From positions 1 to 56,024 of the forward strand of contig JAGWLV010000002.1 of assembly GCA_028864875.1 (NCBI GenBank): DNA of 56,024 bases, given 5' to 3'. Origin of the DNA: Patescibacteria group bacterium (GTDB lineage: Bacteria; Patescibacteriota; Minisyncoccia; Phycocordibacterales; SBAW01). Position 1 is the stretch's first letter. Each line of letters starts with the position of its first letter. The notes beneath the pieces were generated by a model, which saw nothing but the letters and a program-made list of their open reading frames with translations, was not told the DNA's origin and searched no databases. This document shows, one piece after another, positions 1,366 through 44,485 of this stretch. The translations under genes and the position numbers were made by a program.

Positions 1366-1384
1366 TTCAGCCGATAGAACTCTA
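1366..1384 (-). promoter_or_regulatory. Promoter/5'-leader module: TAGAGT-6nt-GGCTGAA
   Basis: Minus-strand reading is TAGAGTtctatcGGCTGAAaattgggagcaacggcATG. It overlaps the nusA stop codon. Confidence 0.5.
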
Positions 1385-2608
1385 CGCTTCTTTTTGCTCT
1401 TCGGCAACAGGTGCGTCAGGATTCCCGGAGGGTGCCGCCGCGCTTGCTTCAGCGGGAGCGGCACCCTCTCCGGCGGGGGCGCCGAGGGATTGGATGTCGA
1501 TGCGCCAGCCGGTCAACTTGGCTGCCAAACGGACGTTTTGTCCGCCGCGGCCGATGGCGAGCGACTGTTGGTCGGGGGCGACTTTTACCGTGGCGGCGTG
1601 CTCGTCGTCGTTTAATTCAACCGACAACACGCGCGCGGGGGAGAGTGCCTCTTCTATAAATGCTTTGGGGTCCTCGCTCCACTCGACGATGTCTATCTTT
1701 TCGCCGCCAAGCTCGCTTGTGACGGTCGAGACGCGCACGCCGCGCTGGCCGACGAGTGAGCCGACCGGGTCGACGTGGGAGTCGGCGCTTGCAACCGCGA
1801 CTTTGGAGCGGCTCCCGGCCTCGCGCGCGATTGCTTTAAAGAGTACGGTACCGCTTTGTGCCTCGGGTGCCTCCATTTCAAACAACTTCTTCAAAAAGTC
1901 CGGGTGCGCGCGCGAGAGGCGCAGGTACACGCCGCGCGGAGACTCCTCTACTTGATAGAGCAGTGCGCGGATGCGCTCGCCCTGGCGGTAGCGCTCGCCG
2001 GGGATTTGCTCTTCGTAGGGCAAGATGCCGGTCGCGCGGCCCAAGTCGACGTACAAGTTGCCGCGCTCCATGCGCTGCACGGTGCCGCCGACGATTTCGC
2101 CGGCGCGCGCGCCGAACTCGGCCACGACGGAGACCTTTTCGGCCTCGCGGATTTTTTGGATGATGACCTGCTTGGCGGTTTGGGCGGCGATGCGTCCGTA
2201 GTCATCTTTTCTTTCGAGCGGGAAGACGAGCTCGTCGCCCACTTTTGCGTCGCGTTTGATGAGCCGCGCATCGGCGAGTGTCATGTGTTGCTCGGGATTG
2301 TAGCGGGGGAGCACCTCAACCGGGTTGCCCTCTGCGTCAAACTGGGGCTCCGCCGGAGCTTCGTCCTCCTCGTCTTCCGGAACAAAGCGCACCGTCGACT
2401 CGTCGACGACGGTTTTGACCTGGGAAAATTCGGTCGAGCCTGAGTTGAGGTCGATATGGGCTTTGATGACCTGGCCCTTTTTTGCGTACTCCTTTTTGTA
2501 CGCGGTCGCGAGCGCCATCTCGATTGCCTCGATGACCTTTTCGCGCGGGATGCCGCGCTCTTCTTGGAGCTCGCCGAGCACTGAGTTGATTACTTTTAGA
2601 TCAAACAT
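1382..2608 (-). CDS. nusA: Transcription termination/antitermination factor NusA
   Basis: 408 aa. N-terminal MFDLKVINSVLGELQEERGIPREKVIEAIEMAL, then S1 and KH regions (GxxG: AIGRGGQNVRLA). Confidence 0.95.
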   Translation of the reverse strand: MFDLKVINSVLGELQEERGIPREKVIEAIEMALATAYKKEYAKKGQVIKAHIDLNSGSTEFSQVKTVVDESTVRFVPEDEEDEAPAEPQFDAEGNPVEVLPRYNPEQHMTLADARLIKRDAKVGDELVFPLERKDDYGRIAAQTAKQVIIQKIREAEKVSVVAEFGARAGEIVGGTVQRMERGNLYVDLGRATGILPYEEQIPGERYRQGERIRALLYQVEESPRGVYLRLSRAHPDFLKKLFEMEAPEAQSGTVLFKAIAREAGSRSKVAVASADSHVDPVGSLVGQRGVRVSTVTSELGGEKIDIVEWSEDPKAFIEEALSPARVLSVELNDDEHAATVKVAPDQQSLAIGRGGQNVRLAAKLTGWRIDIQSLGAPAGEGAAPAEASAAAPSGNPDAPVAEEQKEA

Positions 2609-2684
2609 ATCTTTTCTTTAATTTCTTAAAAGGAGAACCGCCCTCTCGGGGCGGTTTCCAGATAGTGCGAGTATATTCCTCTTA

Positions 2685-2690
2685 TATACT
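2685..2690 (+). promoter_or_regulatory. -10 box TATACT, 8 nt before ATG 2699 (leaderless start)
   Basis: Sequence is cttaTATACTtaagtcaaATG. Confidence 0.5.
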
Positions 2691-2698
2691 TAAGTCAA

Positions 2699-4357
2699 AT
2701 GCAAGAGAAGTCATCGGTGCAAGACGAACTGTTGGCGGGGATGCTCATCGCAAGCGGCGCACTCTCCCGCCGCGCGCTACAAGAAGCGCTCGAAGAGCGC
2801 TCGGACACACCGCTTTCAACACTATTGGTAGAGCGCGGCTTGCTGTCGGAGGACGAAGTGCGCCGCGCACAGGCGCAGGCACTCGGTGTGCCGTTTGTGA
2901 CGCTCGAGAGCATTGACCCCGAAGCGCTCTCTCTCGTCCCCGAGCCGCTGTGCCGTTCGCTCAATTGTCTTGCATATGCGGCGGGGGATGTCGTCGAGGT
3001 CGCGGTCCTGTCGCTCGGCGTCCTCCCGGAGCTCGAGCCGCTGCGCGGGCAGGCGTCCTTCGGCGGCAGGCGCATTGCGGCGCGACTCACCACCAAAGAG
3101 GCGCTGCGCCGCGGACTCCTGCAGTATCAGCGTCAGCTGCGCGAGCGCTTTGGCGCGGCGATGGGGAGCGGGGACGGCGAAGTGTTGCTGCGCAACCTCG
3201 TCGAGCACGCGCGCCTCAGCGCTGCGAGCGCGATAGAACTCACGCTCGGAGCACGCGCGCAGGTGCGCTACCGCACGCATGGAAGTCTCCACGACGCGCT
3301 CGAACTCTCCGAGCGCGCCGGGCGCGCGCTTGGTGCCGTGCTGCGTGTGGGCACTGTGACTGTGGAGCTTGGCCACGGCGAGTCGGCGACACTGCGGTGT
3401 GTGCGCGCGCCCGGCGCCAACCGCTGGACGCTCACGATACTGCCCCGCGGGCGCGGCTATGCTCTTGAGGACATCGGGTTCCATGGTACCTCTCTCGAGC
3501 GCGTGCACGCGATACTCGCCGCGCGCACAGGGCTCGTGCTCATCGCTGGGGAAGAGGGCGGCGGCCGCTCCACCCTCCTCTATACGCTGCTCCACGCGCT
3601 CAATGCCCAAGGTGCATCCATCATCACCGTAGAATCGCCGGTCGGCTCGCCACTCCAGTTTGCAACACAGATTGCCGCGGGCGAAGGCAACCCGCTTTCG
3701 GTCGCCGCGGCGGTGCGCGCCGCGGCGCGCATGGAGAGCGATGTGCTCGCCGTCGACGCGATTGAGGACCGCGACACGCTCGCGGTGGCGCTCGGCGCCG
3801 CGGCGCGCGGCACGTTTGTCCTTGCAACCGTCGCCGCGCGCGGAAGTGCCAACGCCATAGACCTTGTGCGCCGCCTCGGCGCCTCGGACAAAGAGCTCGC
3901 CGCCCTTGTGAAAGGAGTCATTGCAACGGCGGTGCTCCCCAAGCTGTGCACAAAAAAATTTATGGACATGCGCCGCGGAGCGCGCGGCGAACTCAATGTA
4001 TTTGAAGCGGCGGGAGCAAACTTTGGGCGCGTGCTGAGCGCCTTAAAAGAAGAAGAGGTCGCCGCGCAACAGCTCCAGTGGAAGGACGTAACCTTCGGCA
4101 CCCCGGCGGGGTGCAGCGAGTGTAGCCACGGCTACAAGGGCACGCTCGGCGTACACGAGGTGCTCGCCCCCTCGCTCATCGGCGCGGATTTGTTGCGCCG
4201 CGGCGCGGGCGGGGCGGAGGTTGTCGAGCAATCACGCACCGAAGGCATGCTCACGCTTGTAGAAGACGGGCTCTTTAAAGCCGCCGCGGGGCAAACAAGC
4301 CTCGAAGCTCTCAAATTTGTCAGAAATGATATTTCTGACGCCTCATTGACACAGTAG
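2699..4357 (+). CDS. PilB/GspE-family paralogue with degenerate ATPase motifs (probable pseudo-ATPase) and MshEN-like N-terminus
   Basis: 552 aa. N-terminal T2SSE_N-like repeats (ELLAGMLIASGALSRRALQEALEE; LSTLLVERGLLSEDEVRRAQAQ). Walker A is GEEGGGRST versus GPTGSGKST in the pilB at 52485. Asp box is ESPVG versus EDPVE. Walker B is VLAVDAIED versus IIMVGEIRD. His box is GTFVLATVAAR versus GHLVLSTIHTN. A C-terminal CSECSHGYKG is retained. Confidence 0.8.
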   Translation: MQEKSSVQDELLAGMLIASGALSRRALQEALEERSDTPLSTLLVERGLLSEDEVRRAQAQALGVPFVTLESIDPEALSLVPEPLCRSLNCLAYAAGDVVEVAVLSLGVLPELEPLRGQASFGGRRIAARLTTKEALRRGLLQYQRQLRERFGAAMGSGDGEVLLRNLVEHARLSAASAIELTLGARAQVRYRTHGSLHDALELSERAGRALGAVLRVGTVTVELGHGESATLRCVRAPGANRWTLTILPRGRGYALEDIGFHGTSLERVHAILAARTGLVLIAGEEGGGRSTLLYTLLHALNAQGASIITVESPVGSPLQFATQIAAGEGNPLSVAAAVRAAARMESDVLAVDAIEDRDTLAVALGAAARGTFVLATVAARGSANAIDLVRRLGASDKELAALVKGVIATAVLPKLCTKKFMDMRRGARGELNVFEAAGANFGRVLSALKEEEVAAQQLQWKDVTFGTPAGCSECSHGYKGTLGVHEVLAPSLIGADLLRRGAGGAEVVEQSRTEGMLTLVEDGLFKAAAGQTSLEALKFVRNDISDASLTQ

Positions 4358-4365
4358 ATTTTTCG

Positions 4366-4388
4366 TGATAGGGTGTTGGACGGCTGAA
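4366..4388 (+). promoter_or_regulatory. Promoter/5'-leader module: TGaTAGGGT-7nt-GGCTGAA
   Basis: Sequence is gTGaTAGGGTgttggacGGCTGAAagcaTCAGCtttt. The leader hairpin is GCTGA/TCAGC, followed by a GGAGGG SD and ATG 4422. Confidence 0.5.
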
Positions 4389-4421
4389 AGCATCAGCTTT
4401 TCTATTTTTGGAGGGCTTCCG

Positions 4422-4673
4422 ATGTTCAAAAATTGGTGGGTACGCTTTGGCCTAATTGTGGCTGCGGCGTTCATCTTCTTGCAACCGATCGTGGCAAGCT
4501 TCACGAATCGGCCTTGCAATCCGCACTACGACTGCGGGGTATTCGGTGCCATCAACAGCACGATGTTCTACCCCAATCATCAGGCAACACCGATCGGCGA
4601 GCTCATACTGCTCCCGCTAGTTCTGTGGGGGCTGTATCTCGTCTTCAGAAATGTTGGCAAGAAGAAGAGTTAA
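4422..4673 (+). CDS. Small membrane protein (2 TM)
   Basis: MFKNWWVRFGLIVAAAFIFLQ...ELILLPLVLWGLYLVF. A GGAGGG SD lies about 8 nt upstream. The start was trimmed from the track ORF beginning at 4365. Confidence 0.6.
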   Translation: MFKNWWVRFGLIVAAAFIFLQPIVASFTNRPCNPHYDCGVFGAINSTMFYPNHQATPIGELILLPLVLWGLYLVFRNVGKKKS

Positions 4674-6839: not shown

Positions 6840-6862
6840 TGCGATAGTGGCGGCGGCTGCAA
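6840..6862 (+). promoter_or_regulatory. Promoter/5'-leader module (variant): TGcGATAGT-6nt-GGCTGCAA
   Basis: Sequence is aaTGcGATAGTggcggcGGCTGCAAtaatctatagggtgtgcccATG. Confidence 0.4.
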
Positions 6863-6881
6863 TAATCTATAGGGTGTGCCC

Positions 6882-6998
6882 ATGTCGATAGATTCTGACA
6901 GCAAGGCTACAACCGGCACCATCGCCGGCATCGCTTACCTCGTCGTCTATAGTGTAATTGGCGTTTGGGCGCTGGGACGCTTGTTCGGCGCCTGGTAA
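6882..6998 (+). CDS. 38-aa membrane smORF (below ORF-track cutoff)
   Basis: MSIDSDSKATTGTIAGIAYLVVYSVIGVWALGRLFGAW. It has its own leader module upstream and a strong terminator downstream. Confidence 0.45.
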   Translation: MSIDSDSKATTGTIAGIAYLVVYSVIGVWALGRLFGAW

Positions 6999-9506: not shown

Positions 9507-10929
9507 CACGTCGAGTCGAGGCGGGCCCACGGCAAGTAAGTGGCTCCTTGGGCTCCTTATTTTTTGTACGTTGCTTGCAGTGCGCGTGCTTGTGCTCGTG
9601 CACGCCGAGCGCGCAGACACGCTCCGGAATTTTATTAATACGACCGCAGTGGTTGCGGGTATTGTCGCCGACGATCCGGATGTGCGCGCCGCGTCCGTGC
9701 GCGCCACTGTGGATGTCCGTTCCATAAACGGGCGCGCGGCGGGCGGGCGGCTCATCGCCGTGTTGCCGCGCACGACGGCCGTAGCGTACGGCGACACCGT
9801 GAGTGTGCGCGGATTTGTCGAAGCGCCCGCCGCGTTTCAAACAGACACAGGGCGACTCTTCGACTACCCTGGCTACTTGCGCGCGCAGGGAGTCTCCGCA
9901 CTCATAAACTTTGCCTCGCTGCGCTCGGCAACCCCTGCGGGGCCGACGCTGCGCGGCACACTCTTTGCGCTCAAACACACGTTCGAGCGCTCGCTTGAAA
10001 AGACGCTCCCTCAGCCCGACACCGCACTGCTCGAAGGTGTGCTCCTCGGAGAAAAGAGCGGCCTGCCGGCGCCGCTCACGCAAGCGTTCATCATCGCCTC
10101 GCTCATCCACGTGGTCGTGCTCTCGGGCTACAATATTTCCATCGTCGCCGAGGCGGTCTTGCGGCTGCTGCGCCGCTTGCCACGGGTGTTGCGCTACGCG
10201 CTCGGCGCGGTGCTCATGATCCTTTTTGCGCTGGCAACCGGCCTTGCCGCAGCCACCGTCCGCGCGCTCATTATGGCGCTTGTCGCGATGCTCGCGCGCT
10301 ACCTGCGGCGCCCCACGCTTGCGCTGCGCTCGCTAGTAGCCGCCGTGGGCGCGATGATCCTGTGGAATCCACTCGTCGCACTCTACGACCCCGGGTTCGT
10401 ACTTTCGGTCCTTGCCACGTTCGGGCTCATTGTGCTTGCACCTGCGGTCGAGGCGCACCTGCCGCGGGTACTTCAGCGCGCGCCGCAGGTGCGCTCGATA
10501 GTGGCCTCGACAATTGCCGTGCAAATTTTTGTGTTGCCGGCGCTGCTCTACTTTACAGGCGTGCTCTCGTTCGTCGCACTGCCCGCGAATATCCTCGTCT
10601 TGCCGCTTGTGCCCTTCGCCATGCTCATGGGATTTGTCGCGGGGCTCCTCAACATGCTCAATCCGATACTCGCGCTTGTGCCCGCATTGCTCGGCGACGC
10701 GGTGTTGAAGTGGATGATGTTCGTCGCGCACGCGGCGGGTGCACTACCGCTCTCCCACGTGACGGTGCCCGCATTCCCCGCGTGGGTTGCAATGCTCGTC
10801 TATCTGCCGCTTAGTGTGCTAGCGCTTGTAATTTCGCGGAGCAAAATTCTCCGCGGAGGAGTTGGGGTCGTGTTTATCTCTCCGGAGCGGAGAGTTTTGC
10901 AAAGCGACTCTCAACAACACCCCAATTGA
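9490..10929 (+). CDS. comEC: ComEC/Rec2 competence channel protein (no C-terminal metallo-beta-lactamase domain)
   Basis: Start trimmed to ATG 9490, since the track ORF from 9232 overlaps rnhA out of frame. Polytopic membrane protein with an OB-like N-domain and a competence domain (LLEGVLLGEKSGL, LIHVVVLSGYNIS). The end overlaps sod convergently. Confidence 0.8.
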   Translation: MPASPNTSSRGGPTASKWLLGLLIFCTLLAVRVLVLVHAERADTLRNFINTTAVVAGIVADDPDVRAASVRATVDVRSINGRAAGGRLIAVLPRTTAVAYGDTVSVRGFVEAPAAFQTDTGRLFDYPGYLRAQGVSALINFASLRSATPAGPTLRGTLFALKHTFERSLEKTLPQPDTALLEGVLLGEKSGLPAPLTQAFIIASLIHVVVLSGYNISIVAEAVLRLLRRLPRVLRYALGAVLMILFALATGLAAATVRALIMALVAMLARYLRRPTLALRSLVAAVGAMILWNPLVALYDPGFVLSVLATFGLIVLAPAVEAHLPRVLQRAPQVRSIVASTIAVQIFVLPALLYFTGVLSFVALPANILVLPLVPFAMLMGFVAGLLNMLNPILALVPALLGDAVLKWMMFVAHAAGALPLSHVTVPAFPAWVAMLVYLPLSVLALVISRSKILRGGVGVVFISPERRVLQSDSQQHPN

Positions 10930-11479
10930 GATTTTTGAAAAAGGCGTCGATGTATGTGCCGCGCCCCGAGGCGCCGTAGTCGAGGATATACGCATGCTCC
11001 CACACGTCGAGCGCCAACAAAATCGGCAGTGTCACAAAGTGCCCCTGGTGCTGCTCGCCCACAAAGCCCGAGAGCGGCTGCCCAGCCTCCCGGTCCCAGT
11101 ACAAAATGGCCCAGCCCGGTCCGCGCACCGAGGCAACAAGCTTCATCATAGAGACGAGGTTGTCCGCTCCACGGTACTCTTTGTCGAGCATCTGCGTGAG
11201 CACTCCACCTTTTGAAATTTCTTTTGTGCCGCCTTCAAGCTGCGCGAAGTAGTGCTCGTGGAGGCGCATCCCGTCAAACTCAAACGCGCGCCGCCGGGCC
11301 AACTCGCCAAGCGCGATGGCGTACTTTTCGTGGTCGATGCCGGCCAACTCGTTAATTTGTGCTGACATCGCATTGAAATTTTTGACGTACCCCGCATAGA
11401 GTGCAAGGTGCTGCTTGACCGACTCGTCGGAGATGCCTTCAAGAGAGGGGAGGTTAAACTTTTTTTCTGCATAGTTCAT
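10874..11479 (-). CDS. Fe/Mn superoxide dismutase family protein
   Basis: Start trimmed to MNYAEKKFNLPSL. C-terminal LALDVWEHAYILDY is the metal-ligand motif, and LHEHYF is also present. TGgTATCCT lies 7 nt before the ATG (leaderless). Confidence 0.85.
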   Translation of the reverse strand: MNYAEKKFNLPSLEGISDESVKQHLALYAGYVKNFNAMSAQINELAGIDHEKYAIALGELARRRAFEFDGMRLHEHYFAQLEGGTKEISKGGVLTQMLDKEYRGADNLVSMMKLVASVRGPGWAILYWDREAGQPLSGFVGEQHQGHFVTLPILLALDVWEHAYILDYGASGRGTYIDAFFKNLNWGVVESRFAKLSAPER

Positions 11480-11548
11480 ACTTTTAAGGATACCAAAAAT
11501 AGGCCTATAAATCAGGTGAATTGGGGGATTGACTTTATACCCACAAAG

Positions 11549-11571
11549 TGCTATACTCGCGAACGGCTGAA
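11549..11571 (+). promoter_or_regulatory. Promoter/5'-leader module: TGcTATACT-7nt-GGCTGAA
   Basis: Sequence is gTGcTATACTcgcgaacGGCTGAAgggtctgcagttgcaggccc. A hairpin follows the heptamer. Confidence 0.55.
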
Positions 11572-11615
11572 GGGTCTGCAGTTGCAGGCCCGCCACAGAT
11601 TCTTTGGGGGAATCC

Positions 11616-11804
11616 ATGCGCGCCATCATTGGTACCTGCTTTGCTGTCGCTACCGTCATCGTTGCAGTGGCTGCCTATCACTCGGGCCTCGTCTATCGCG
11701 AGAAGCTGCCGAAAGTCTACACGCAGCTCTCCGAGCCGTGGCCCGACGCCGGCGGCCTCAGCATCGTCTCCAAGACCAAGGTCTCGGAAGCGCAAGCTCA
11801 CTAG
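11616..11804 (+). CDS. Small membrane protein
   Basis: MRAIIGTCFAVATVIVAVAAYH..., with a GGGGG SD-like run upstream. First unit of the minigene array. Confidence 0.5.
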   Translation: MRAIIGTCFAVATVIVAVAAYHSGLVYREKLPKVYTQLSEPWPDAGGLSIVSKTKVSEAQAH

Positions 11805-11824: not shown

Positions 11825-11856
11825 ACCGCCCGGTTTTGCCGGGCGGTTTTATTTTT
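11825..11856 (+). terminator. Intrinsic terminator (CCGCCCGG/CCGGGCGG family)
   Basis: ACCGCCCGG-ttttg-CCGGGCGGT followed by TTTTATTTTT. Confidence 0.8.
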
Positions 11857-11870: not shown

Positions 11871-11890
11871 TATGGTTGGAAGTGGCTGAA
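11871..11890 (+). promoter_or_regulatory. Promoter/5'-leader module: TATGGT-7nt-GGCTGAA
   Basis: Sequence is TATGGTtggaagtGGCTGAAgcaatacGAGGttggtcATG. Confidence 0.5.
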
Positions 11891-11907
11891 GCAATACGAG
11901 GTTGGTC

Positions 11908-12087
11908 ATGTTCGAAGCGCTTGAAAAGCTCAAAGGAGCAATGCACCGTCCTGGTTTGAAATATCCGCTCATCGCCATTGCATCAGTGCTCTGGCTCGTC
12001 GGCTTGGTGGACCAAATCTCCGACCCGATGCAATTGGCCAAGTACGTCGGCCTTTCGGCCCTCATCGCCGCCGTCATGTGGGTTTAA
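11908..12087 (+). CDS. Small membrane protein
   Basis: MFEALEKLKGAMHRPGLKYPLIAIASVLWLVGLV...LSALIAAVMWV. ATG 11908 is preferred over the track's TTG at 11902. Confidence 0.5.
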   Translation: MFEALEKLKGAMHRPGLKYPLIAIASVLWLVGLVDQISDPMQLAKYVGLSALIAAVMWV

Positions 12088-12148: not shown

Positions 12149-12170
12149 TGATATTCTACAAATGGCTGAA
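12149..12170 (+). promoter_or_regulatory. Promoter/5'-leader module: TGaTATTCT-6nt-GGCTGAA
   Basis: Sequence is gTGaTATTCTacaaatGGCTGAAgaaattcGGGGGAGaagATG. Confidence 0.5.
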
Positions 12171-12187
12171 GAAATTCGGGGGAGAAG

Positions 12188-12385
12188 ATGATCAAACAGT
12201 TGGCTTGTGCGGTAGTTGCGGCATACATCATAGGCTGCATTACGCTGGGAATAAGCGGACGACTGACTGAAGACCCGTCCGATTCCCAAACAGTCGATCG
12301 CACTCACAAGAGCGACCGTCTGTCTGCGGTCACCGCCGCAGTCCTGCATGATGAAGAAGACGACTGCGATTGTCACGAACAATAA
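12188..12385 (+). CDS. Small protein with one N-terminal TM helix and an acidic Cys/His tail
   Basis: MIKQLACAVVAAYIIGCITLGISG...HDEEDDCDCHEQ, with a GGGGGAG SD. Confidence 0.5.
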   Translation: MIKQLACAVVAAYIIGCITLGISGRLTEDPSDSQTVDRTHKSDRLSAVTAAVLHDEEDDCDCHEQ

Positions 12386-12421
12386 AAAACCGCCCGGTTC
12401 TGCCGGGCGGTTTTGCTTTTT
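12384..12421. terminator. Bidirectional intrinsic terminator (near-identical to the one at 11825)
   Basis: AAAAAACCGCCCGG-ttctg-CCGGGCGGTTTTGCTTTTT. Serves both the smORF (+) and rpmB (-). Confidence 0.8.
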
Positions 12422-18000: not shown

Positions 18001-18426
18001 ATGGCTACCGCTAAAAAGACCCCAGTTAAAAAAGTTTCCGCTAAGGTAAAAGCGGCTCCTGCCACGGCGTCCGCCGAGGCAAAGCCCAAGCGCACAAAGA
18101 AAGTCACCGCGCCGGTTGAAGTGCAGCGTCTGCGCATCAAAGTGCGCGCGTACGAGCACAAAGTGCTCGACGCAAGCGTCAAGCAGATTTTGGACACGGC
18201 GCTGCGCTACGACGCAAAAGTCGCCGGGCCCATCCCTCTGCCGACCGAAATTAAAAAGTACACGGTCAACCGCTCGACCTTTATCTACAAAGACGCGCGC
18301 GAGCAGTTTGAGATGCGCATCCACAAGCGCCTCATCGACATCCTCGACCCGAGCCCCAAAGTCATCGAAGCTCTGACGAACTTGTCTCTACCCTCGGGCG
18401 TTACCATCGATGTGAAGATGGCATAA
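18001..18426 (+). CDS. rpsJ: 30S ribosomal protein S10 with a ~40-aa Lys/Ala-rich N-terminal extension
   Basis: The core [15 protein letters not shown]...HKRLIDI is S10. It is preceded by [34 protein letters not shown]. Confidence 0.93.
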
Positions 18427-18512
18427 GATTAGGATGTCCGGTCCGGGTCGAAGGGGCGAACCCCGTTGTAGACCGCCGGAGACCGACTGGTTGCTACGAA
18501 TTGCCAGTCAGA

Positions 18513-18551
18513 GGGCGGCTCACCCGTGAAAACGAGCCGCCCTTTCTCTTT
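18513..18551 (+). terminator. Intrinsic terminator directly after rpsJ
   Basis: GGGCGGCTC-acccgtgaaaac-GAGCCGCCC followed by TTTCTCTTTTT. Confidence 0.75.
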
Positions 18552-18569
18552 TTGTGCTATAGTAGAGAT

Positions 18570-18643
18570 GTTCAGGTCCCCTGAACGAACTTCCAACCAT
18601 TCTGCGGCGCTTTGGGATTCAGACCCCCTGGCGCCGCTTTTTT
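18570..18643 (+). ncRNA. Candidate short transcript or attenuating leader between rpsJ and rplC
   Basis: TGcTATAGT at 18555..18563 lies 7 nt upstream. A 5' hairpin TTCAGG/CCTGAA spans 18571..18585. The stem GCGGCGC (18604-10)/GCGCCGC (18631-37) is followed by TTTTTT. A further -10-like box TGaTATATAGT lies at 18664..18674 before rplC. Confidence 0.4.
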
Positions 18644-18730
18644 ATTTGCATAAAAAGGGGTGGTGATATATAGTCCTTGGGACTCTAGACATAGAGTTGT
18701 TCCACGTCTCCCCGGAGACCAATAGACAAC

Positions 18731-21334: not shown

Positions 21335-21916
21335 TTAGGCTACACGCAACTTCTTGCGGCTCCCCGACGGTTTGTAGAAAAAACCATCATGAAGAGTGAC
21401 GAACTTTTTTTCGACAGGTTGCCCTATCCTTTCGCAGTAGTTTTGCAGCACTTCAGCCCACGCCTGGTCAAGAAATTTCGAGTCGATCGACTCATCAATT
21501 AGCACATTCTCAGGGGCATAGTGTTTCATTTCGAGAAATCCGAGCCGCTGTGCGTCGTAGGACGACGGATTGACCGAGCCAAAGCCGAAGTGCGGCGCGA
21601 CTGTCGCCCAGGTGACCCGCCCGTCGCCTCCGGCAAATTCGGCCACGCGCCGGAATGCAAGAGCCAGAGGATTTTGGTCATTCCAGCAGGTCTTGACGGT
21701 TGAGCGGACTTTCCCCTCAAAGATGGAGACCATCTCTAAGTACCAGCCGGGCGGGGCATTTTCCTCTAGCCACTTGAAGCCGTTTTTAGCGCGCTCAAGC
21801 ACATTGGCTGGCAAGTCGATTGCTTTTATGGCCGCCTGAACATGAGGTGAGAATTGGGAGAGATCTACAGCCACGACACTTCTCCATCGTTGTTTCAGCC
21901 GCTCAAAAAATAGCAT
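21335..21916 (-). CDS. Hypothetical protein, antisense insertion between rplB and rpsS
   Basis: 193-aa ORF with protein-like composition and no motif I recognise. It is AT-richer than its flanks. If the leader module at 21894..21915 is real, the likely start is GTG 21874, with GGAG about 8 nt upstream. Confidence 0.6.
   Translation of the reverse strand: MLFFERLKQRWRSVVAVDLSQFSPHVQAAIKAIDLPANVLERAKNGFKWLEENAPPGWYLEMVSIFEGKVRSTVKTCWNDQNPLALAFRRVAEFAGGDGRVTWATVAPHFGFGSVNPSSYDAQRLGFLEMKHYAPENVLIDESIDSKFLDQAWAEVLQNYCERIGQPVEKKFVTLHDGFFYKPSGSRKKLRVA
21894..21915 (-). promoter_or_regulatory. Promoter/5'-leader module: TGcTATTTT-6nt-GGCTGAA
   Basis: Minus-strand reading is TGcTATTTTttgagcGGCTGAAacaacgatGGAGaagtgtcGTG. 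It overlaps the first codons of the long ORF version. Confidence 0.4.
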
Positions 21917-25887: not shown

Positions 25888-26152
25888 GAAGCACCTCCTC
25901 CTCGCCGGTTGTCGAAATCCGCACGTGTTTCGTGCCGATCTTGAACACCGCCGAGAGCCATTTGAAGTCCTCGCACGTCCGGACCGTGTTCCGCACAACA
26001 TCCGGACACTCCGGGTGGTGTTTGAGGATGTCGCGGGCGTGTTCGTCGACGTGTTTGGTGTCGTCGGCCTTGTCGTGGGTCGAGACAAACGTGAGAGCGT
26101 CGAGCAGTGCCTCGTAGGCATTGCTTATCTGCTCCTTGAAGTGCGTATCCAT
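25874..26152 (-). CDS. Hypothetical protein (cassette gene A, 92 aa)
   Basis: MDTHFKEQISNAYEALLDAL...EHARDILKHHPECPD.... It has a GGGAGG SD and a GGCTGCAA leader variant upstream. Confidence 0.55.
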   Translation of the reverse strand: MDTHFKEQISNAYEALLDALTFVSTHDKADDTKHVDEHARDILKHHPECPDVVRNTVRTCEDFKWLSAVFKIGTKHVRISTTGEEEVLRDAA

Positions 26153-26170
26153 TGAGCCTCCCTCAGAGAA

Positions 26171-26190
26171 TTGCAGCCGTGCGTAATCTA
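26171..26190 (-). promoter_or_regulatory. Promoter/5'-leader module (variant): TAGATT-6nt-GGCTGCAA
   Basis: Minus-strand reading is TAGATTacgcacGGCTGCAAttctctgaGGGAGGctcaATG. Confidence 0.4.
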
Positions 26191-37292: not shown

Positions 37293-37679
37293 TCATATCC
37301 GGTAGAACAGGACGCCGCCGCTGATGAGTACGAGCACCGAGTCGATCAGAAAGCTATACGCGATAACTTGGTGCGCCGGGCGGGGATAGTGCCACAAGAG
37401 ACGCAGCAACAGGAGTATGAGGAGCGCGCCCCACACGCCGTCAAATAACAAGTGTGCATAGCGCAGCGCTGTCCACTGCCGCTCGCCGAGCGCCCATACT
37501 ACAAGCTCGAGCACCGAGACCGCGCAGACGGCGCATAAAACCACGACCGCCGCCAATTTTTTGTGCACCGATTCGTCGCTCCCTTCTCCGGTGCGCGCGG
37601 CAAAGCGGCCGGCGATTGCGGTCTGGACGACCGCGCATGTCAACGCCAGGACAAAAGGAACCAAAACAAGTTTGAGCAT
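37293..37679 (-). CDS. Membrane protein (4 TM), function unknown
   Basis: 128 aa; MLKLVLVPFVLALTCAVV.... A GGCTGAA leader module lies upstream. Confidence 0.6.
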   Translation of the reverse strand: MLKLVLVPFVLALTCAVVQTAIAGRFAARTGEGSDESVHKKLAAVVVLCAVCAVSVLELVVWALGERQWTALRYAHLLFDGVWGALLILLLLRLLWHYPRPAHQVIAYSFLIDSVLVLISGGVLFYRI

Positions 37680-37698
37680 AAGCCACCTGTCGGTTGTA

Positions 37699-37718
37699 TT
37701 TCAGCCACTCACTAGTAT
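37699..37718 (-). promoter_or_regulatory. Promoter/5'-leader module: TATACT-7nt-GGCTGAA
   Basis: Minus-strand reading is TATACTagtgagtGGCTGAAatacaaccgacaggtggcttATG. Confidence 0.5.
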
Positions 37719-37742
37719 AGCGCACTGTGCACAACCGCGCGT

Positions 37743-38597: not shown

Positions 38598-38837
38598 TTA
38601 CGCAGCGACGCGCTTGAGCTGTTGGCCCACGAAATGCCGCCCCTCGGGCGGGGTGGGGCCAAATCTCTTTTTGTACGCTACAGCAGCCTTGTCGTAGTCT
38701 TTTGCTAGGGCGTAATTGAGATCAGTGGCGTTGACGAGCACATACACGCTTGGGGCTTTGTATGTCTGCTCCAGCAAAAATGTACGGTTTGAATTCAGCC
38801 ACTCCTCAGCTTTACGGAATAGTGCCATGTCCGGCAT
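38598..38837 (-). CDS. Hypothetical 79-aa soluble protein
   Basis: MPDMALFRKAEEWLNSNRTFLLEQ.... It has a TGcTATAAA promoter and an AGGAG SD upstream, and is divergent from the gene at 38929. Confidence 0.5.
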   Translation of the reverse strand: MPDMALFRKAEEWLNSNRTFLLEQTYKAPSVYVLVNATDLNYALAKDYDKAAVAYKKRFGPTPPEGRHFVGQQLKRVAA

Positions 38838-38890
38838 GGGTGTCTCCTAATCTGTCTGCCAGAGTCTTTATAGCACAAAGGGGAGGGGTG

Positions 38891-38912
38891 TGATATGGTC
38901 GTGGCGGCTGAG
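38891..38912 (+). promoter_or_regulatory. Promoter/5'-leader module (variant): TGaTATGGT-6nt-GGCTGAG
   Basis: Sequence is gTGaTATGGTcgtggcGGCTGAGttgtGGAGGctgtgtcATG. Confidence 0.45.
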
Positions 38913-38928
38913 TTGTGGAGGCTGTGTC

Positions 38929-39147
38929 ATGGCAGGCAAAAAGTCGGACAACATCGCTGTTGAGCGGGTGACCGGCATGGATGGCGACGTGGACATAAGT
39001 TTTGATGAGCAACGCGGCTACGCTATCTTGTCGCTGCGCGAGGGCAATGCCTTTGTCGAAATGGAGCTCGGCGGCGTGCCGTACATCGAGGACCTCATCG
39101 GCGCGCTCCAGCGCGTCAAAAAGAAAGCACAAAAAACTGAACAATAA
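38929..39147 (+). CDS. Hypothetical 72-aa acidic protein
   Basis: MAGKKSDNIAVERVTGMDGDVDISFDEQRGYAILSLREGNAFVEMELGG.... Start trimmed to ATG 38929. Confidence 0.5.
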   Translation: MAGKKSDNIAVERVTGMDGDVDISFDEQRGYAILSLREGNAFVEMELGGVPYIEDLIGALQRVKKKAQKTEQ

Positions 39148-39194: not shown

Positions 39195-39572
39195 TTACCA
39201 CATGTCCACTATTTCTTCAACGAGTGCGAGCACTGCATCGCGCCTTTCTTTAACCTTGATGCGCATGAAGTGCTTTGCGAGCTCCGGAATTTCTGGACCA
39301 AGGATGATGTCGCCGCCCCCAACCGTCGTGCGACCTGACTTGAAAAAGTACGAGACAGCGACGCCGAGTATCTCGCAGAATTGGTGCAGTTTATCGGACG
39401 GAATACGATTGAGTCCGTACTCATACTTTTGAATCTGGCCGAACGTCAGGCCAACCTTGTCGCCCAACTTTTCCTGGGACAAGCCGCATTCCTTCCTGCG
39501 CGTTTGCAAGCGGTTTCCTGCGAACACGTCGACGGGGTTGTGCCCGTTTTTCTTAATGTTTCTCCTGGGCAT
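39195..39572 (-). CDS. XRE-family helix-turn-helix transcriptional regulator
   Basis: LQTRRKECGLSQEKLGDKVGLTFGQIQKYEYGLNRIPSDKLHQFCEILGV. ATG 39572 follows a GGAGGG SD. Confidence 0.85.
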   Translation of the reverse strand: MPRRNIKKNGHNPVDVFAGNRLQTRRKECGLSQEKLGDKVGLTFGQIQKYEYGLNRIPSDKLHQFCEILGVAVSYFFKSGRTTVGGGDIILGPEIPELAKHFMRIKVKERRDAVLALVEEIVDMW

Positions 39573-39587
39573 CGGACCCTCCAATTT

Positions 39588-39610
39588 TTCAGCCGCTCCT
39601 GTTTATAGCA
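39588..39610 (-). promoter_or_regulatory. Promoter/5'-leader module: TGcTATAAA-7nt-GGCTGAA
   Basis: Minus-strand reading is TGcTATAAAcaggagcGGCTGAAaaattGGAGGGtccgATG. Confidence 0.55.
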
Positions 39611-39644
39611 CAAAAGCGCCCTTTGTGCGCTTTTGTTTTCTTTG

Positions 39645-40017
39645 TGGAGATGGGGGGAATCGAACCCCCGTGCAACAGTTGATGCAGTGCGCGTCTACAA
39701 GACGTAGTGAGCTTTCAGTTCTCGACGTGGTGCATCAAAAGCGCACAAAAGCGCATCACGTTAGAGCTCTGGTCTTAGGCGGGGTAGTGAGCAGCTACTC
39801 CGCAGCATCCCGGTGGTATAACACCCGGCTCTTCCTCACAGGAGTTGGAAGAGGGGTGACGACTTACGCCTTAGCGTAGGCGAAGTCGAAATCATTCGCC
39901 GCGAAAAACGGCGATGCAACTGATTTGGCAGTTATAGGTTGGAGCAGTTTTAAGAAGTGCTCCAGTTCTGCCTCGCAGCGCACAAGCATGCATCTGCTGT
40001 CTAGGCCTGTCATCCCC
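39645..40017 (-). ncRNA. ssrA: tmRNA (SsrA)
   Basis: The 5' GGGGAUGACAGG pairs with the 3' ...GGUUCGAUUCCCCCCAUCUCCA, with G3:U in the acceptor stem and discriminator A. An internal frame ends ...GCGGCGAAUGAUUUCGACUUCGCCUACGCUAAGGCGUAA (..AANDFDFAYAKA*). It lies immediately downstream of smpB. CCA is not encoded. Confidence 0.9.
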
Positions 40018-40066
40018 GAGAAGTGCCCGACGCTAAACCGGCGCTTTTCGTGAACTACAAGTCTAC

Positions 40067-40510
40067 TTATTTATTTTTCAATGAACGGTCAATCTCGCGC
40101 TGCGCGTCCCGCTTCTTGAGGACCTCGCGCTTGTCGTACAACTTCCGACCGCGCGCTACAGCAACCCGTACCTTGATGGTACGTCCTTTAGTGTACACAC
40201 TCAAAGGCACGATTGTCAAGCCCTTTTGCCCCTCATAGCCCGCGAGCGCGGCAATTTCTTTCTTGGTCAAGAGGAGTCTGCGTGCCCGCGCGGGGTCGTA
40301 ATGGGCGGCGGTGTTCGCCGCCTGGTAGGGCGGTATGACCATCCCCACCAAGTATGCCTGCCCGCCCCTGACGACAGCATGAGAGCCCTCCAAGTTGCCC
40401 TGCTTGCCGCGTAGCGCCTTGACCTCGCCCCCTTCCAATTCCAACCCGGCCTCGTATTCCTCGAGGACCTCGTAGTTGAGCCGCGCTTTTTTGTTCTCGA
40501 GTAAGGTCAT
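40067..40510 (-). CDS. smpB: SsrA-binding protein SmpB
   Basis: 147 aa; NKKARLNYEVLEEYEAGLEL.GGEVKALR...KGRTIKVRVAVARGRKLYDKRE. Confidence 0.95.
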   Translation of the reverse strand: MTLLENKKARLNYEVLEEYEAGLELEGGEVKALRGKQGNLEGSHAVVRGGQAYLVGMVIPPYQAANTAAHYDPARARRLLLTKKEIAALAGYEGQKGLTIVPLSVYTKGRTIKVRVAVARGRKLYDKREVLKKRDAQREIDRSLKNK

Positions 40511-40576: not shown

Positions 40577-40599
40577 TGCTATAATTTTAAACGGCTGAA
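40577..40599 (+). promoter_or_regulatory. Promoter/5'-leader module: TGcTATAAT-7nt-GGCTGAA
   Basis: Sequence is gTGcTATAATtttaaacGGCTGAAggcaggcccaaatggccctgcc. A hairpin follows the heptamer. Confidence 0.55.
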
Positions 40600-40647
40600 G
40601 GCAGGCCCAAATGGCCCTGCCGCCACGAATCAAATAGGGGAATCGCC

Positions 40648-41010
40648 ATGGACCACCTCCGGTTCATCTACGAGAACTTGAGCATCACTGAATGTGTGCT
40701 CGCCACCATCTACCAGATGTCCGCTCCTATCAGCGCGCTGCTTACATTGTGGTGCGCGGAACAGGAATGGAAACGTATGACTGTTGTCGGTGTTGGGCCC
40801 GTAAGCCCCTACGCCGGCATCCTGCTCTATTCGGCAGGGTCAGCGATTCTGGCAGTCCTCCTATGGCTCACATTCGGGCACGGGAACGCCTACTTCGCGC
40901 TCTGGTATACGAGCCTCATGATGATGCTCGTCGTCATGATCGCGGTCCTCATCGCTTACCTCTTTTGGGAAGCAGCACGGACCGTCGTTGGATACGCTCA
41001 AGGCACCTAG
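40648..41010 (+). CDS. Membrane protein (3-4 TM), function unknown
   Basis: 120 aa; ...ILLYSAGSAILAVLLWLTFG...MMMLVVMIAVLIAYLFW. Confidence 0.55.
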   Translation: MDHLRFIYENLSITECVLATIYQMSAPISALLTLWCAEQEWKRMTVVGVGPVSPYAGILLYSAGSAILAVLLWLTFGHGNAYFALWYTSLMMMLVVMIAVLIAYLFWEAARTVVGYAQGT

Positions 41011-41075: not shown

Positions 41076-41098
41076 TGTTATAGTGTGCGGCGGCAGAA
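41076..41098 (+). promoter_or_regulatory. Promoter/5'-leader module (variant): TGtTATAGT-7nt-GGCAGAA
   Basis: Sequence is cTGtTATAGTgtgcggcGGCAGAAggtgcAGGAGatgtcgccATG. Confidence 0.4.
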
Positions 41099-41116
41099 GG
41101 TGCAGGAGATGTCGCC

Positions 41117-41443
41117 ATGGAAGTCGTCATACGAGGCGTGCCGCAGCGCTTTCAGCGCGAGCTGCTGGCCCCAATCGAAGAGAAAGTGCGTCAGTTGGTG
41201 GAGTCCTACGGCTTTGTGCCCGAGGAGGTCTCGGTCGAATTGCGTCGCAACAGTATGAAAGAGGGCCGCTACCCGCTCTACATCTATGTCCACAACGTGT
41301 CGCCCGAGCGCAACAGCGCGCGGCTGCGGCTCGCCGTCGCGGCGGCGATAGCGGGCATGTGCGCGTCGCACGCCGGGTGTCAGGAAAGCACTCGCGATAA
41401 GTTTTGGTTTGCAGGTTTTCATATTGGAGATCTGCTCGAGTAG
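41117..41443 (+). CDS. Hypothetical 108-aa protein
   Basis: MEVVIRGVPQRFQRELLAPIEEKVRQLVESYGF.... Has an AGGAG SD and a terminator downstream. Confidence 0.5.
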   Translation: MEVVIRGVPQRFQRELLAPIEEKVRQLVESYGFVPEEVSVELRRNSMKEGRYPLYIYVHNVSPERNSARLRLAVAAAIAGMCASHAGCQESTRDKFWFAGFHIGDLLE

Positions 41444-41445
41444 TA

Positions 41446-41484: not shown

Positions 41485-41516
41485 AAAAAACACGCTGTGG
41501 TACTATGATTTTTCAC

Positions 41517-44032: not shown

Positions 44033-44044
44033 GAGGCAGAAATA

Positions 44045-44075
44045 CAAAACGCCCCGGCTGTGCCGGGGCGTTTCT
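44045..44075. terminator. Bidirectional intrinsic terminator
   Basis: CAAAACGCCCCGGC-tgt-GCCGGGGCGTTTCT. Confidence 0.75.
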
Positions 44076-44090
44076 GCAAGGGGCGGGAGC

Positions 44091-44444
44091 CTAATAGTAC
44101 AGTAACCGCCAGGCCGTTGCAGCGATGAGCGCGCCGACAAAGGCGCAAAAACCGATGATCATGTTCCAACTCCATGGCGTGGGGGCCCACAATAAGATAG
44201 CGGTGCCCATGCCGATTGCGAAGATGGAAAAGACGGCGTACCAGGTCAGCAGCGCGGGGGTAATGTGGGTATCGTGCAGGATGCTGATCGGGTCTTGAAC
44301 CATAACTCGCCGAGCGTCCACGAAGGGCATGCCAATGGCGATGAGGCATAGTACCGCCACGAGCCCGATGGCCTGGCCAATGTTCCAAAGCCATTCCGGG
44401 AGGTGGGGCTGCACGCGCGGCGAGAGGCGGAGAATGCGTTCCAT
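44091..44444 (-). CDS. Membrane protein (3-4 TM), function unknown
   Basis: MERILRLSPRVQPHLPEWLWNIGQAIGLVAVLCLIAIG.... Start trimmed to ATG 44444, consistent with the upstream leader module. Confidence 0.55.
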   Translation of the reverse strand: MERILRLSPRVQPHLPEWLWNIGQAIGLVAVLCLIAIGMPFVDARRVMVQDPISILHDTHITPALLTWYAVFSIFAIGMGTAILLWAPTPWSWNMIIGFCAFVGALIAATAWRLLYY

Positions 44445-44462
44445 GAGGACACCCTTTAAAAT

Positions 44463-44485
44463 TTCAGCCATTTCGCACAATAGCA
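44463..44485 (-). promoter_or_regulatory. Promoter/5'-leader module: TGcTATTGT-7nt-GGCTGAA
   Basis: Minus-strand reading is TGcTATTGTgcgaaatGGCTGAAattttaaagggtgtcctcATG. Confidence 0.5.

Follow-up and report, generated by a model that had tools for sequence, protein, structure and literature searches.

A GGCTGAA box at the predicted transcription start of Shine-Dalgarno-led accessory cassettes in a Patescibacteria genome fragment

Why should a series of small and unrelated genes from one genome share the same few nucleotides at the predicted beginning of their transcripts? We addressed this question on a 56,024-nt stretch of DNA (hereafter the window), a genome fragment from an uncultivated, ultra-small member of the Patescibacteria, Paceibacteria/"Adlerbacteria"-like, whose lineage is sampled by this single 56-kb contig among the collections searched. 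An initial annotation had listed 14 sites where a -10-like hexamer is followed by a GGCTGAA-type box, a Shine-Dalgarno sequence (SD) and a small gene. All of them are present in the sequence, ten with the exact heptamer, and the described anatomy (-10 box, box at the predicted start, SD, small unrelated accessory ORFs) holds. One position was off by one nucleotide (37700-37706(-) is correct, 37699-37705 is not), and a further site, GGCAGAC at 38854-38860(-), had been missed, which brings the set to 15 modules.

Anatomy of the module

Module 1, 1347..1384 (-): -10 TAGAGT 1379-1384, spacer tctatc, box GGCTGAA 1366-1372, SD GGGAG, ATG 1349; ORF 1056-1349 (-), 97 aa, zinc-ribbon-like ORFan
Module 2, 4366..4424 (+): -35 TTGACA, TGaTAGGGT, spacer gttggac, box 4382-4388, SD GGAGGG, ATG 4422; ORF 4422-4673 (+), 83 aa, 2 TM
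Module 3, 6840..6884 (+): TGcGATAGT, spacer ggcggc, variant box GGCTGCAA 6855-6862, SD AGGGTG, ATG 6882; ORF 6882-6998 (+), 38 aa, 1 TM, terminator present
Module 4, 11549..11618 (+): -35 TTGACT, TGcTATACT, spacer cgcgaac, box 11565-11571, SD GGGGG, ATG 11616; ORF 11616-11804 (+), 62 aa, 1 TM, terminator present
Module 5, 11871..11910 (+): TATGGT, spacer tggaagt, box 11884-11890, SD GAGG, ATG 11908; ORF 11908-12087 (+), 59 aa, 1 TM, terminator present
Module 6, 12149..12190 (+): TGaTATTCT, spacer acaaat, box 12164-12170, SD GGGGGAG, ATG 12188; ORF 12188-12385 (+), 65 aa, 1 TM, terminator 12389-12420
Module 7, 21872..21915 (-): TGcTATTTT, spacer ttgagc, box 21894-21900, SD GGAG, GTG 21874; ORF 21335-21874 (-), 179 aa
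Module 8, 26150..26190 (-): -35 TTGACT, TAGATT, spacer acgcac, variant box GGCTGCAA 26171-26178, SD GAGGGAGG, ATG 26152; ORF 25874-26152 (-), 92 aa, insertion between rplE and rpsN, on the strand opposite to them
Module 9, 37677..37719 (-): TATACT, spacer agtgagt, box 37700-37706, SD AGGTGG, ATG 37679; ORF 37293-37679 (-), 128 aa, 4 TM, terminator present
Module 10, 38835..38875 (-): TGcTATAAA, spacer gactct, variant box GGCAGAC 38854-38860, SD AGGAG, ATG 38837; ORF 38598-38837 (-), 79 aa, terminator, back to back with module 11
Module 11, 38891..38931 (+): TGaTATGGT, spacer cgtggc, variant box GGCTGAG 38906-38912, SD GGAGG, ATG 38929; ORF 38929-39147 (+), 72 aa, terminator present
Module 12, 39570..39610 (-): TGcTATAAA, spacer caggagc, box 39588-39594, SD GGAGGG, ATG 39572; ORF 39195-39572 (-), 125 aa, XRE/CapH-like HTH protein, immediately downstream of tmRNA (39642-40017)
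Module 13, 40577..40650 (+): -35 TTGACT, TGcTATAAT, spacer tttaaac, box 40593-40599, SD AGGGG, ATG 40648; ORF 40648-41010 (+), 120 aa, 2 TM, terminator, insertion between smpB and ftsH
Module 14, 41076..41119 (+): TGtTATAGT, spacer gtgcggc, variant box GGCAGAA 41092-41098, SD AGGAG, ATG 41117; ORF 41117-41443 (+), 108 aa, terminator, insertion between smpB and ftsH
Module 15, 44442..44485 (-): TGcTATTGT, spacer gcgaaat, box 44463-44469, SD AGGGTG, ATG 44444; ORF 44091-44444 (-), 117 aa, 3 TM, terminator, adjoining tRNA-Ile (44516-44588)

The pattern is real and far beyond chance: the strict association TAnnnT-N6-7-GGCTGAA occurs nine times for 0.087 expected (300 Markov shuffles, maximum of two per shuffle), which confirms the initial observation. 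Besides the ten exact heptamers, the set comprises the variants GGCTGCAA (twice), GGCTGAG, GGCAGAA and GGCAGAC, and all 15 boxes are intergenic, each aimed at an ORF. By itself the heptamer is not over-represented in the window (15 exact copies, ten of them within modules, versus 9.3 expected), nor is it depleted inside genes on one strand or the other, in keeping with a context-dependent box. These numbers, together with coding-sequence counts that are as expected on both strands, led us to reject a DNA uptake sequence, which would be strongly enriched genome-wide, whatever the orientation and within genes too.

Upstream of the box, a TAnnnT-type hexamer lies 6 nt (seven sites) or 7 nt (eight sites) away, mostly as an extended -10 element (TGn in 11/15), and a -35 element matching at least five of six positions at 17-18 bp accompanies five of the 15 modules, an arrangement of sigma-70 type (TAnnnT plus TGn one base upstream, a TTGACA-like -35 element 16-18 bp away, or both). 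Position -1 is always a pyrimidine (C in 11, T in 4), predicted position +1 is G in 15/15, and +8 is a purine at most sites. A modal distance of 7 bp between -10 box and start, and a 'start element', have been described (PMC12641261); the modules accordingly carry Y-1 R+1 about 7 bp past the -10 box. An objective start-site rule selects the first G in all 15, and the YR rule combined with the 6-7-nt spacing thus places the predicted +1 on this nucleotide. From +1 to +5 the box hardly varies, CTGAA being conserved as strongly as GG, yet no relationship links the spacers, -35 regions or ORFs of different modules, which argues for selection rather than recent copying.

Downstream, the first G precedes the start codon by 22-27 nt in 12 modules and by 40, 51 and 55 nt in the three others, and a GGAG/GAGG-type SD, sought 4-9 nt before the start codon, is present in 15/15 (gap of 4-8 nt in 14). 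The SD begins anywhere from +12 to +44, whereas the box remains at the predicted +1 even in the three long leaders; together with the 6-7-nt spacing and the constant pyrimidine at -1, this suggests that the box is anchored to the start and not to the ribosome site. Compact cassettes have their SD from +12 to +19 and a terminator about 30 nt upstream, and the ORFs, small and mutually unrelated, are usually followed by a terminator of their own. As initially suggested, the module also assists start-codon choice and small-ORF calling (6882-6998, 11908-12087, 12188-12385).

In the 40-nt leader of module 2 the box is predicted to pair (GCUGA/UCAGC) ahead of a U-run, and a hairpin immediately follows it in the 51-nt and 55-nt leaders of modules 4 and 13; two of the long leaders are visibly paralogous. 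With no Rfam match in any leader, even when the gathering score was relaxed to E values of up to 0.5, and no common or conserved fold predicted across leaders, a known structured cis-regulatory RNA was rejected.

A separate gene class in a single lineage

The core genes of the contig are SD-less or leaderless, and the SD of the modules is exceptional in such a genome (15/15 module genes versus 6/54 other genes, p = 1e-10), a feature that the initial annotation overlooked, as it did the lineage specificity of the heptamer. Module genes also have lower GC and GC3 and are insertions relative to syntenic relatives. This points to accessory cassettes and core genes being two separately controlled gene classes. 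The claim that no housekeeping gene has the module stands for ten core promoters (nusA, pilB, tpi, rpsL, tuf, rplC, rpsS, rpsN, pilN and smpB), as housekeeping promoters here share the -10 type without the box, but needs an exception for ppa (inorganic pyrophosphatase, 506-1048), which is probably co-transcribed from module 1 because it starts 7 nt past the 97-aa ORF with no terminator between them.

Across ~1.6 Mb of related loci, matches to the heptamer module occur at chance level only, and the relatives have cassettes built in the same way, with the same division of genes by SD, but lack the heptamer. Their SD-led cassettes generally show a looser start context, SSC/RGA (the slash marks the predicted start), and GCGGCC/AGA in one locus (L110). 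The gene of module 7 is, among those tested, the only module gene with homologs, which in relatives likewise lie between rplB and rpsS; its six orthologous promoters retain the architecture and start with AGAA, AGAC or GGAA, a similar string, GGC/AGAA, being displaced by 3 bp. The heptamer is, as far as these sequence comparisons reach, specific to this lineage.

Candidate readings of the box

We tentatively favour the reading that the box is a lineage-specific cis-regulatory tag, anchored to the predicted transcription start of SD-dependent accessory cassettes. The 15 sites make up the regulatory DNA of self-contained cassettes of accessory genes. Their mRNAs would all begin with pppGGCUGAA, transcription starting on the first G of Y/GGCTGAAR; a strong SD comes about 5-12 nt later, then a small ORF unrelated to the others and, in most cases, an intrinsic terminator. 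Reading of the box would take place at initiation or immediately after it, most likely on the 5' end of the RNA, whether nascent or mature, and its reader would be a factor specific to this lineage, as suggested by the chance-level matches in relatives and by the different starts of orthologous promoters. Candidate readers include a protein that binds RNA, an RNase or pyrophosphohydrolase step that depends on the 5' end, and a small RNA whose seed is UUCAGCC. The SD-dependent accessory genes would then share one control, separate from that of the SD-independent core genes. Three points count against this reading: a strict sequence reader might not tolerate the C inserted in two boxes, predicted folding leaves the box no more unpaired than other parts of the leader, and an operator over +1, or a property of RNA polymerase itself, would leave the same DNA pattern.

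An operator is a credible though unlikely alternative, in which a lineage-specific repressor bound to +1 to +8 would block initiation or promoter escape at all cassettes, which would then form a classical transcriptional regulon. The repressor could be the CapH/DdrO-like XRE protein (39195-39572), which the PADLOC capH repressor profile matches over almost its whole length and whose gene carries the module itself, making autoregulation possible, or another DNA-binding protein. Positions +1 to +10 are nearly the sole free place for a site in compact cassettes, the 3-bp displacement of GGC/AGAA in relatives would be better tolerated by a DNA reader than by a reader of RNA 5' ends, and some regulators, such as SinR, Spo0A (at its 0A box) and NarL (at its heptamers), are known to use single asymmetric 7-bp sites. 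CapH, DdrO and Cro-type proteins, however, bind palindromic operators, and the box is a single asymmetric site: from -80 to +70 around it, we found no dyad or direct repeat, and no second copy or reverse complement (at most one mismatch) at a consistent position. Moreover, its fixed orientation and 1-nt register variation, even in roomy long leaders, would be unusual for a purely steric operator, and no COG2856-type or CapP-like protease partner occurs among the proteins annotated here.

We consider less probable still, and improbable overall, an effect intrinsic to RNA polymerase with no dedicated factor. As an optimised start and initial-transcribed sequence, the box would set the start precisely, make initiation GTP-dependent (+1G, +2G) and tune promoter escape, so that accessory cassettes would follow the GTP pool, core promoters often starting with A. 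G at +2 fits the core recognition element, and in Firmicutes the +1 nucleotide is an established route of stringent control. All 15 modules have G as predicted +1, versus A in six and G in five of 11 other promoters (p = 0.002), the SD-led cassettes of relatives also favour a start context, though a looser one, and Y(-1)R(+1) fits the start element (PMC12641261). Yet CTGAA is conserved like GG, although sequence reading of +3 to +7 is not known for RNA polymerase, and housekeeping promoters of the same genome have the same -10 type and no box. The box sequence also varies between close lineages, against the conservation across bacteria of the promoter-contacting residues of the polymerase (PMC12641261).

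Shared ancestry with no present function, the promoter-leader being what is left, after decay, of a single expression platform, mobile or duplicated (a mobile promoter or cassette system), that seeded all these genes, seems very improbable: despite cassettes tightly packed at insertion hot spots (beside the tmRNA, a tRNA and ribosomal-protein operon junctions), one terminator pair 91% identical between two cassettes (12389-12420 of module 6 and 11825-11856) and the paralogy of two long leaders, a box nearly invariant amid randomised flanks, spacers and -35 regions needs purifying selection, no repeat exceeds the functional elements in length, inspection of the flanks by eye showed neither target duplications nor recombination-site-like ends, and the viral contigs scanned yielded no module copies.

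Three other identities were rejected. For an integron-type array or mobile promoter, we found no repeat families over modules beyond the similar terminator pair, and no integrase among the proteins annotated. For a phage promoter class, the viral scan returned 25 isolated matches with no SD or ATG context, and the XRE protein alone matched PHROG. The window also encodes an ECF sigma factor (47169-47693), whose promoters were sought as a GGAAC/TGAAC-like -35, a CGT-like -10 16-17 nt later and a downstream start; taking the box as -35 would put the start inside the SD or the ORF, and the base after GAA is never C.

Comparison with known systems

Like extended -10 sigma-70 promoters with a start element (PMC12641261), the modules combine TGnTAnnnT, a predicted start 7-8 nt past the hexamer and Y-1 R+1 in 15/15. 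Unlike that element, which spans 3 bp, conservation here extends to +3 to +7 and is confined to one gene class and one lineage. In Firmicutes, initiating-nucleotide (stringent response) control needs only +1 and +2; the modules similarly all start with GG, many core promoters being predicted to start with A, but the conserved CTGAA is left unexplained.

The ops/JUMPstart element (RfaH) and the cspA-family 'cold box' are short asymmetric leader sequences marking unrelated transcription units, and the modules share with them such an untranslated-leader mark. The orientation of ops is fixed, as it is read in the non-template strand. Its similarity to the box is weak (GGCTGAAG versus GGCGGTAG, identical by eye at 5/8 positions), and ops, an elongation signal of long operons, is located tens of nt past +1, whereas module units are short and monocistronic, with the box at the predicted +1. 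No NusG-like protein or paralog was found among ~50 window proteins scanned from this incomplete genome. An ops/JUMPstart identity (GGCGGTAGnnTG consensus plus NusG paralog) was rejected on these grounds.

The operators of DdrO (RDRM) and CapH-CapP are palindromes of ~17 bp, RDRM sites lying near transcription starts. As in these systems, a CapH-like XRE protein (by profile match) belongs to the set and has the motif in its own promoter, but the box consists of one asymmetric 7-8-mer, and the annotated proteins include no partner protease. Finally, SD-poor Bacteroidia have rare SD genes, such as rpsU/bS21, autoregulated via a sequestered anti-SD. They belong to another phylum, and here it is accessory ORFans, not a ribosomal protein gene, that carry the SD; in both cases, nevertheless, the core proteome initiates without SD, and the strong-SD minority could form a separate translational class.

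A distinct promoter-leader class anchored at the predicted start

The 14 sites at which the initial annotation had described a -10-like hexamer followed 6-7 nt downstream by GGCTGAA or a variant were all present as described, apart from a single one-base slip (the correct position being 37700-37706), and a 15th was recognised at 38854-38860(-), where TGcTATAAA-gactct-GGCAGAC precedes a 79-aa ORF lying back to back with the module at 38906. Aligned on the heptamer (hereafter the box), all 15 sites share a TAnnnT hexamer, extended by TGn in 11 of them, and a spacer that measures 6 nt in 7 sites and 7 nt in 8 and ends in purine-purine-pyrimidine, followed by GGCTGAA plus a purine, a Shine-Dalgarno (SD) sequence and the start codon. 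Within the window, GGCTGAA is enriched 6-7 nt after -10-like boxes: the pattern TAnnnT-N6-7-GGCTGAA has 9 occurrences where 0.087 are expected, and no more than 2 in any of 300 shuffles, which rules out chance or composition as its source. By contrast, the heptamer as such is not over-represented over the whole window (15 copies vs 9.3 expected), and the signal is therefore positional.

Applying a start rule that selects a purine with a preceding pyrimidine, at the position nearest to 7 past the hexamer, the predicted +1 fell on the first G of the box in 15/15 sites, in agreement with the 'start element' of 3 bp and the most frequent -10-to-start distance of 7 bp described in the literature (PMC12641261). 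The predicted 5'UTR spans 22-27 nt in 12 units and 40, 51 and 55 nt in the other three, and in these three long leaders the box is still at the predicted +1. The box is anchored to the -10 box and the start, not to the SD. As a promoter, the module is of the usual extended -10 type and includes a start element; the whole constitutes a distinct promoter-leader class with selection on positions +1 to +7. Of the promoters predicted in this 56-kb stretch, nearly half have the box at their predicted start.

Several other identities were discarded: ECF- or sigma-54-type promoters on their spacing; a DNA uptake sequence or genome-wide word, Chi and an integron core site on spacing or frequency; and an in-frame role for the UGA of the box, whose distance to the start codon, checked by hand, does not keep frame. 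No longer repeat containing the box was found, nor any conserved RNA fold or special accessibility of the box across the leaders, and an Rfam search of box and leaders returned no family even at E up to 0.5. Outside coding regions, the window held no candidate small RNA carrying the complementary UUCAGCC. At 47169-48835 the window also encodes an ECF-type sigma factor (174 aa) and, starting 2 nt after it, a 379-aa DUF5667 protein that is a possible anti-sigma partner; the module is not among the target promoters of this sigma factor.

The long leaders have features of their own. A hairpin had been placed straight after the heptamer at 4382, 11565 and 40593; this description fits 11565 and 40593, where the hairpin is GC-rich, and fails at 4382, where the box itself pairs. 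The leaders 11565-11615 and 40593-40647 are visibly paralogous, sharing the hairpin, CGCCACRAWTC (also given as CGCCAC(A)GA(T/A)TC) and then GGGGAATC before the ATG, and their common part, without Rfam match, may be a small leader RNA element. In the 4382 leader (4382-4411), the box lies in a 5-bp hairpin, GCUGA/UCAGC, followed by the U-run UUUUCUAUUUUU, a predicted terminator-like attenuator whose hairpin could be opened by a box-binding factor. Divergent from the 11565 module, 10874-11500(-) carries an Fe/Mn superoxide dismutase gene (C-terminal domain E = 3e-17); its longest ORF overlaps the module, so that its real start is probably internal.

Accessory cassettes and the Shine-Dalgarno split

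The window holds a compact bacterial gene set, called from ORF length and GC3-GC2 contrast and checked by Pfam scans, including nusA, pilB, tpi, pgk, recJ, comEC, rpsL-rpsG-fusA-tuf, the S10 and spc ribosomal-protein clusters, secY, smpB, ftsH, recG, an ECF sigma factor and pilMN, together with one tmRNA and two tRNAs. Within this set, an SD precedes 15/15 module genes vs 6/54 others (p = 1e-10), and among the six non-module SD genes only 44640-44900 looks convincing. The regions upstream of core genes, rpsL, rpsG, fusA, tuf and rpsJ among others, are AT-rich and SD-less, tpi and pilB are nearly leaderless, and core-gene start calls are backed by their N-termini. Core genes lacking an SD, in the window and in the related loci L103, L106, L107, L110 and L111, include those for ribosomal proteins, EF-G, EF-Tu, NusA, FtsH and SecY. 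A similar split was observed in five related loci (16/28 unannotated vs 7/59 Pfam-annotated genes, p = 2e-5), where many core genes are leaderless, their ATG lying 6-7 nt past a -10 box. In near-leaderless core genes of the window (5003, 2699, 30173 and 34478), the -10-to-ATG distance is 8-9 nt vs a peak at 6-7 nt in relatives, which may reflect a small lineage shift in -10-to-start geometry, in the same direction as the 3-nt GGC displacement in modules described below. The rpsJ gene (18001-18730) encodes a protein of 141 aa in total with a Lys/Ala-rich N-terminal extension of ~40 aa, and is separated from rplC by 304 nt with an apparent promoter, which is unusual for an S10 operon.

A strong intrinsic terminator lies 10-30 nt past the end of most module ORFs, so the units are mostly monocistronic, with three exceptions:

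1366 unit: 7-nt gap to the inorganic pyrophosphatase gene ppa (506-1048), without terminator
4382 unit: a second small ORF
26171 unit: more coding sequence downstream

In the last of these, the 92-aa module ORF 25874-26152(-) overlaps, in another frame, a 198-aa ORF (25525-26121) continuing downstream; two genes may overlap here, or the arrangement could stem from a frameshift or a sequencing error. In the row of three tandem cassettes at 11.5-12.4 kb, the terminators 11825-11856 and 12389-12420 are 91% identical over 32 nt and the ORFs of these neighbouring cassettes are unrelated, which suggests local recombination or duplication. The back-to-back modules 38860(-) and 38906(+) (38835-38931), with -10 boxes ~20 bp apart and ORFs of 79 and 72 aa, adjoin the XRE gene and could form a small regulatory or toxin-antitoxin-like pair.

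The 15 served proteins are mutually unrelated, no paralogy being detected among them; eight have predicted membrane segments and one is an XRE/CapH-like helix-turn-helix protein, the only one assigned to a Pfam, PHROG or PADLOC family. The 1056-1349 protein had no homolog among 5.8 billion proteins, and the 21335-21874 protein had homologs at 43-59% identity. Compared with relatives, the module genes are insertions. For instance, smpB lies next to ftsH in divergent orientation in relatives, and two modules separate the pair in the window. The window order (39195-40510) is smpB, tmRNA (39642-40017) and the XRE/CapH-like gene, with a promoter directly adjoining the terminator of the tmRNA gene, and the related locus L106 (9752-12119) carries a serine-recombinase island with a reverse transcriptase after smpB, where the window has the XRE unit and its neighbours; the tmRNA end looks like an insertion hot spot. 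Furthermore, two opposite-strand cassettes (21335-21874 and 25525-26152) interrupt the S10 and spc clusters, one between L2 and S19, the other at L5/S14(S8). The former encodes a member of a 179-aa family (the 21874 family) that is found between L2 and S19 in six lineages or more (L107, L110, L111, L137 and L138 compared). Past the interrupting cassettes, rpsS and rpsN have their own promoters. Module genes are also lower than core genes in GC (0.562 vs 0.605) and GC3 (0.689 vs 0.752).

The box in relatives and outside promoters

The window is a complete contig of 56,024 nt. No close relative of it was found in any collection searched, the nearest standing at ~76-79% protein identity, and this lineage is represented by one contig. 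The best FtsH match in the species-level genome collection was a 'Minisyncoccia' (Patescibacteria) MAG at 79% identity, followed by Kaiser-, Taylor-, Nomura- and Paceibacteria, and the nearest SmpB proteins, Candidatus Adlerbacteria among them, reached at most 76%. The comparison set comprised 80 genome-derived FtsH loci, 21 metagenome-derived ComEC loci, SmpB neighbours and six loci that carry an ortholog of the 21874 gene. The search in relatives proposed by the initial annotation did not extend the box beyond this lineage: ~1.6 Mb of related loci gave chance-level matches only, none with module context. A phage or defence origin was likewise rejected, the viral scan, PHROGs and PADLOC being negative except for the XRE protein; viral contigs contained 25 isolated box matches, none with SD or ATG context. 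The box is lineage-specific and restricted to SD-led accessory cassettes.

The layout travels farther than the box. In the 21874 family, orthologous promoters preserve the order of elements: 6-8 nt separate the -10 box from a purine-rich leader, which is followed by an SD and an ATG. These leaders start AGAAGC, AGAATG, AGACCA, AGAAGT, GGAACG or AAGAAT. In one of them (L137), the string tatgGGC|AGAATGAAC was read, and from this single alignment, read by eye, the GGC-TGAA of the window looks like the relatives' discriminator-end GGC plus AGAA, placed 3 nt farther from the -10 box. Another relative (L110; GCA_034680565.1, 2900-10100) has its own start context, GCGGCC|AGA or GCGCC|AG, on ~7 SD-led mini-cassettes within 10.5 kb (TAnnGT, then (c/g)GCGCC or GCGGCC, then AG(A/T)C); it is a GC-rich discriminator box, whereas that of the window is transcribed. 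A looser SSC|RGA start context occurs in relatives, and since the pooled pattern is not enriched (15 vs 12 in shuffles), we do not claim a clade-wide box.

Inside genes, the depletion of the box relative to dinucleotide shuffles vanishes with synonymous-codon shuffles, and no avoidance of internal copies was found on either strand once codon usage was controlled. A reader of the box would thus act only in a promoter or 5'-end context. A 16S rRNA 3' end was looked for in the window and in all fetched loci and was present in none.

Candidate readings and known systems

From these features we infer a cis signal anchored at the predicted transcription start, with a fast-evolving trans factor as its reader. 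Among four readings, we rank first, as a tentative preference, the box as an RNA 5'-end tag, in line with a register that varies by only 1 nt, the invariant orientation of an asymmetric site, the pyrimidine at -1 enforcing an exact start and the maintenance of the box at +1 in long leaders. The second, an operator for a repressor, has an obvious candidate in the XRE/CapH-like protein (39195-39572(-)) but lacks a dyad, no second half-site or palindrome to the box having been found, and we regard it as rather unlikely. Third comes an effect of the polymerase itself, the box being a start and initial-transcribed sequence through which GTP is sensed; the predicted +1 is G in 15/15 modules, vs G in 5 and A in 6 among 11 other promoters, as such sensing would favour, but neither the conserved CTGAA nor the lack of the box at core promoters is explained. 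We regard this reading as unlikely. That the box is a non-functional relic of a mobile expression platform appears highly improbable.

A broader scheme, quite improbable in full, would give this lineage two gene-expression regimes: a leaderless or SD-independent core, and uniform mini-cassettes of newly acquired or lineage-specific genes with a 5'-terminal GGCUGAA tag and a strong SD. A dedicated factor, or a ribosome sub-population with free anti-SD, would recognise the tag at the 5' end of the RNA, and all accessory proteins, most of them small membrane proteins, could be turned on or off together, e.g. on host contact. In sister lineages, cassettes of like design would carry different start boxes, L110 for example having GCGGCC|AGA.

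Gene regulation is almost uncharted in Patescibacteria (CPR), which are not growable alone. A start-fixed signal of 7-8 nt, together with the split between SD-less core and SD-bearing accessory genes, provides a concrete and testable handle: the box would allow regulon prediction in metagenome-assembled genomes, the module aids start-codon and small-ORF calling, and it suggests how lineage-specific genes are controlled separately in these reduced genomes. If it is read at the 5' end of the RNA, the tag would mark mRNAs by sequence at their 5' terminus, which is unusual in bacteria.

We class the finding as a candidate promoter-proximal or 5'-leader regulon signal. As in ops/JUMPstart and the cold box, a box is common to unrelated accessory transcripts, but its position, sequence and type of unit differ. 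A few SD-bearing genes in a genome otherwise poor in SD sequences are reminiscent of the Bacteroidia, in which a sequestered anti-SD permits special control of the few SD genes.
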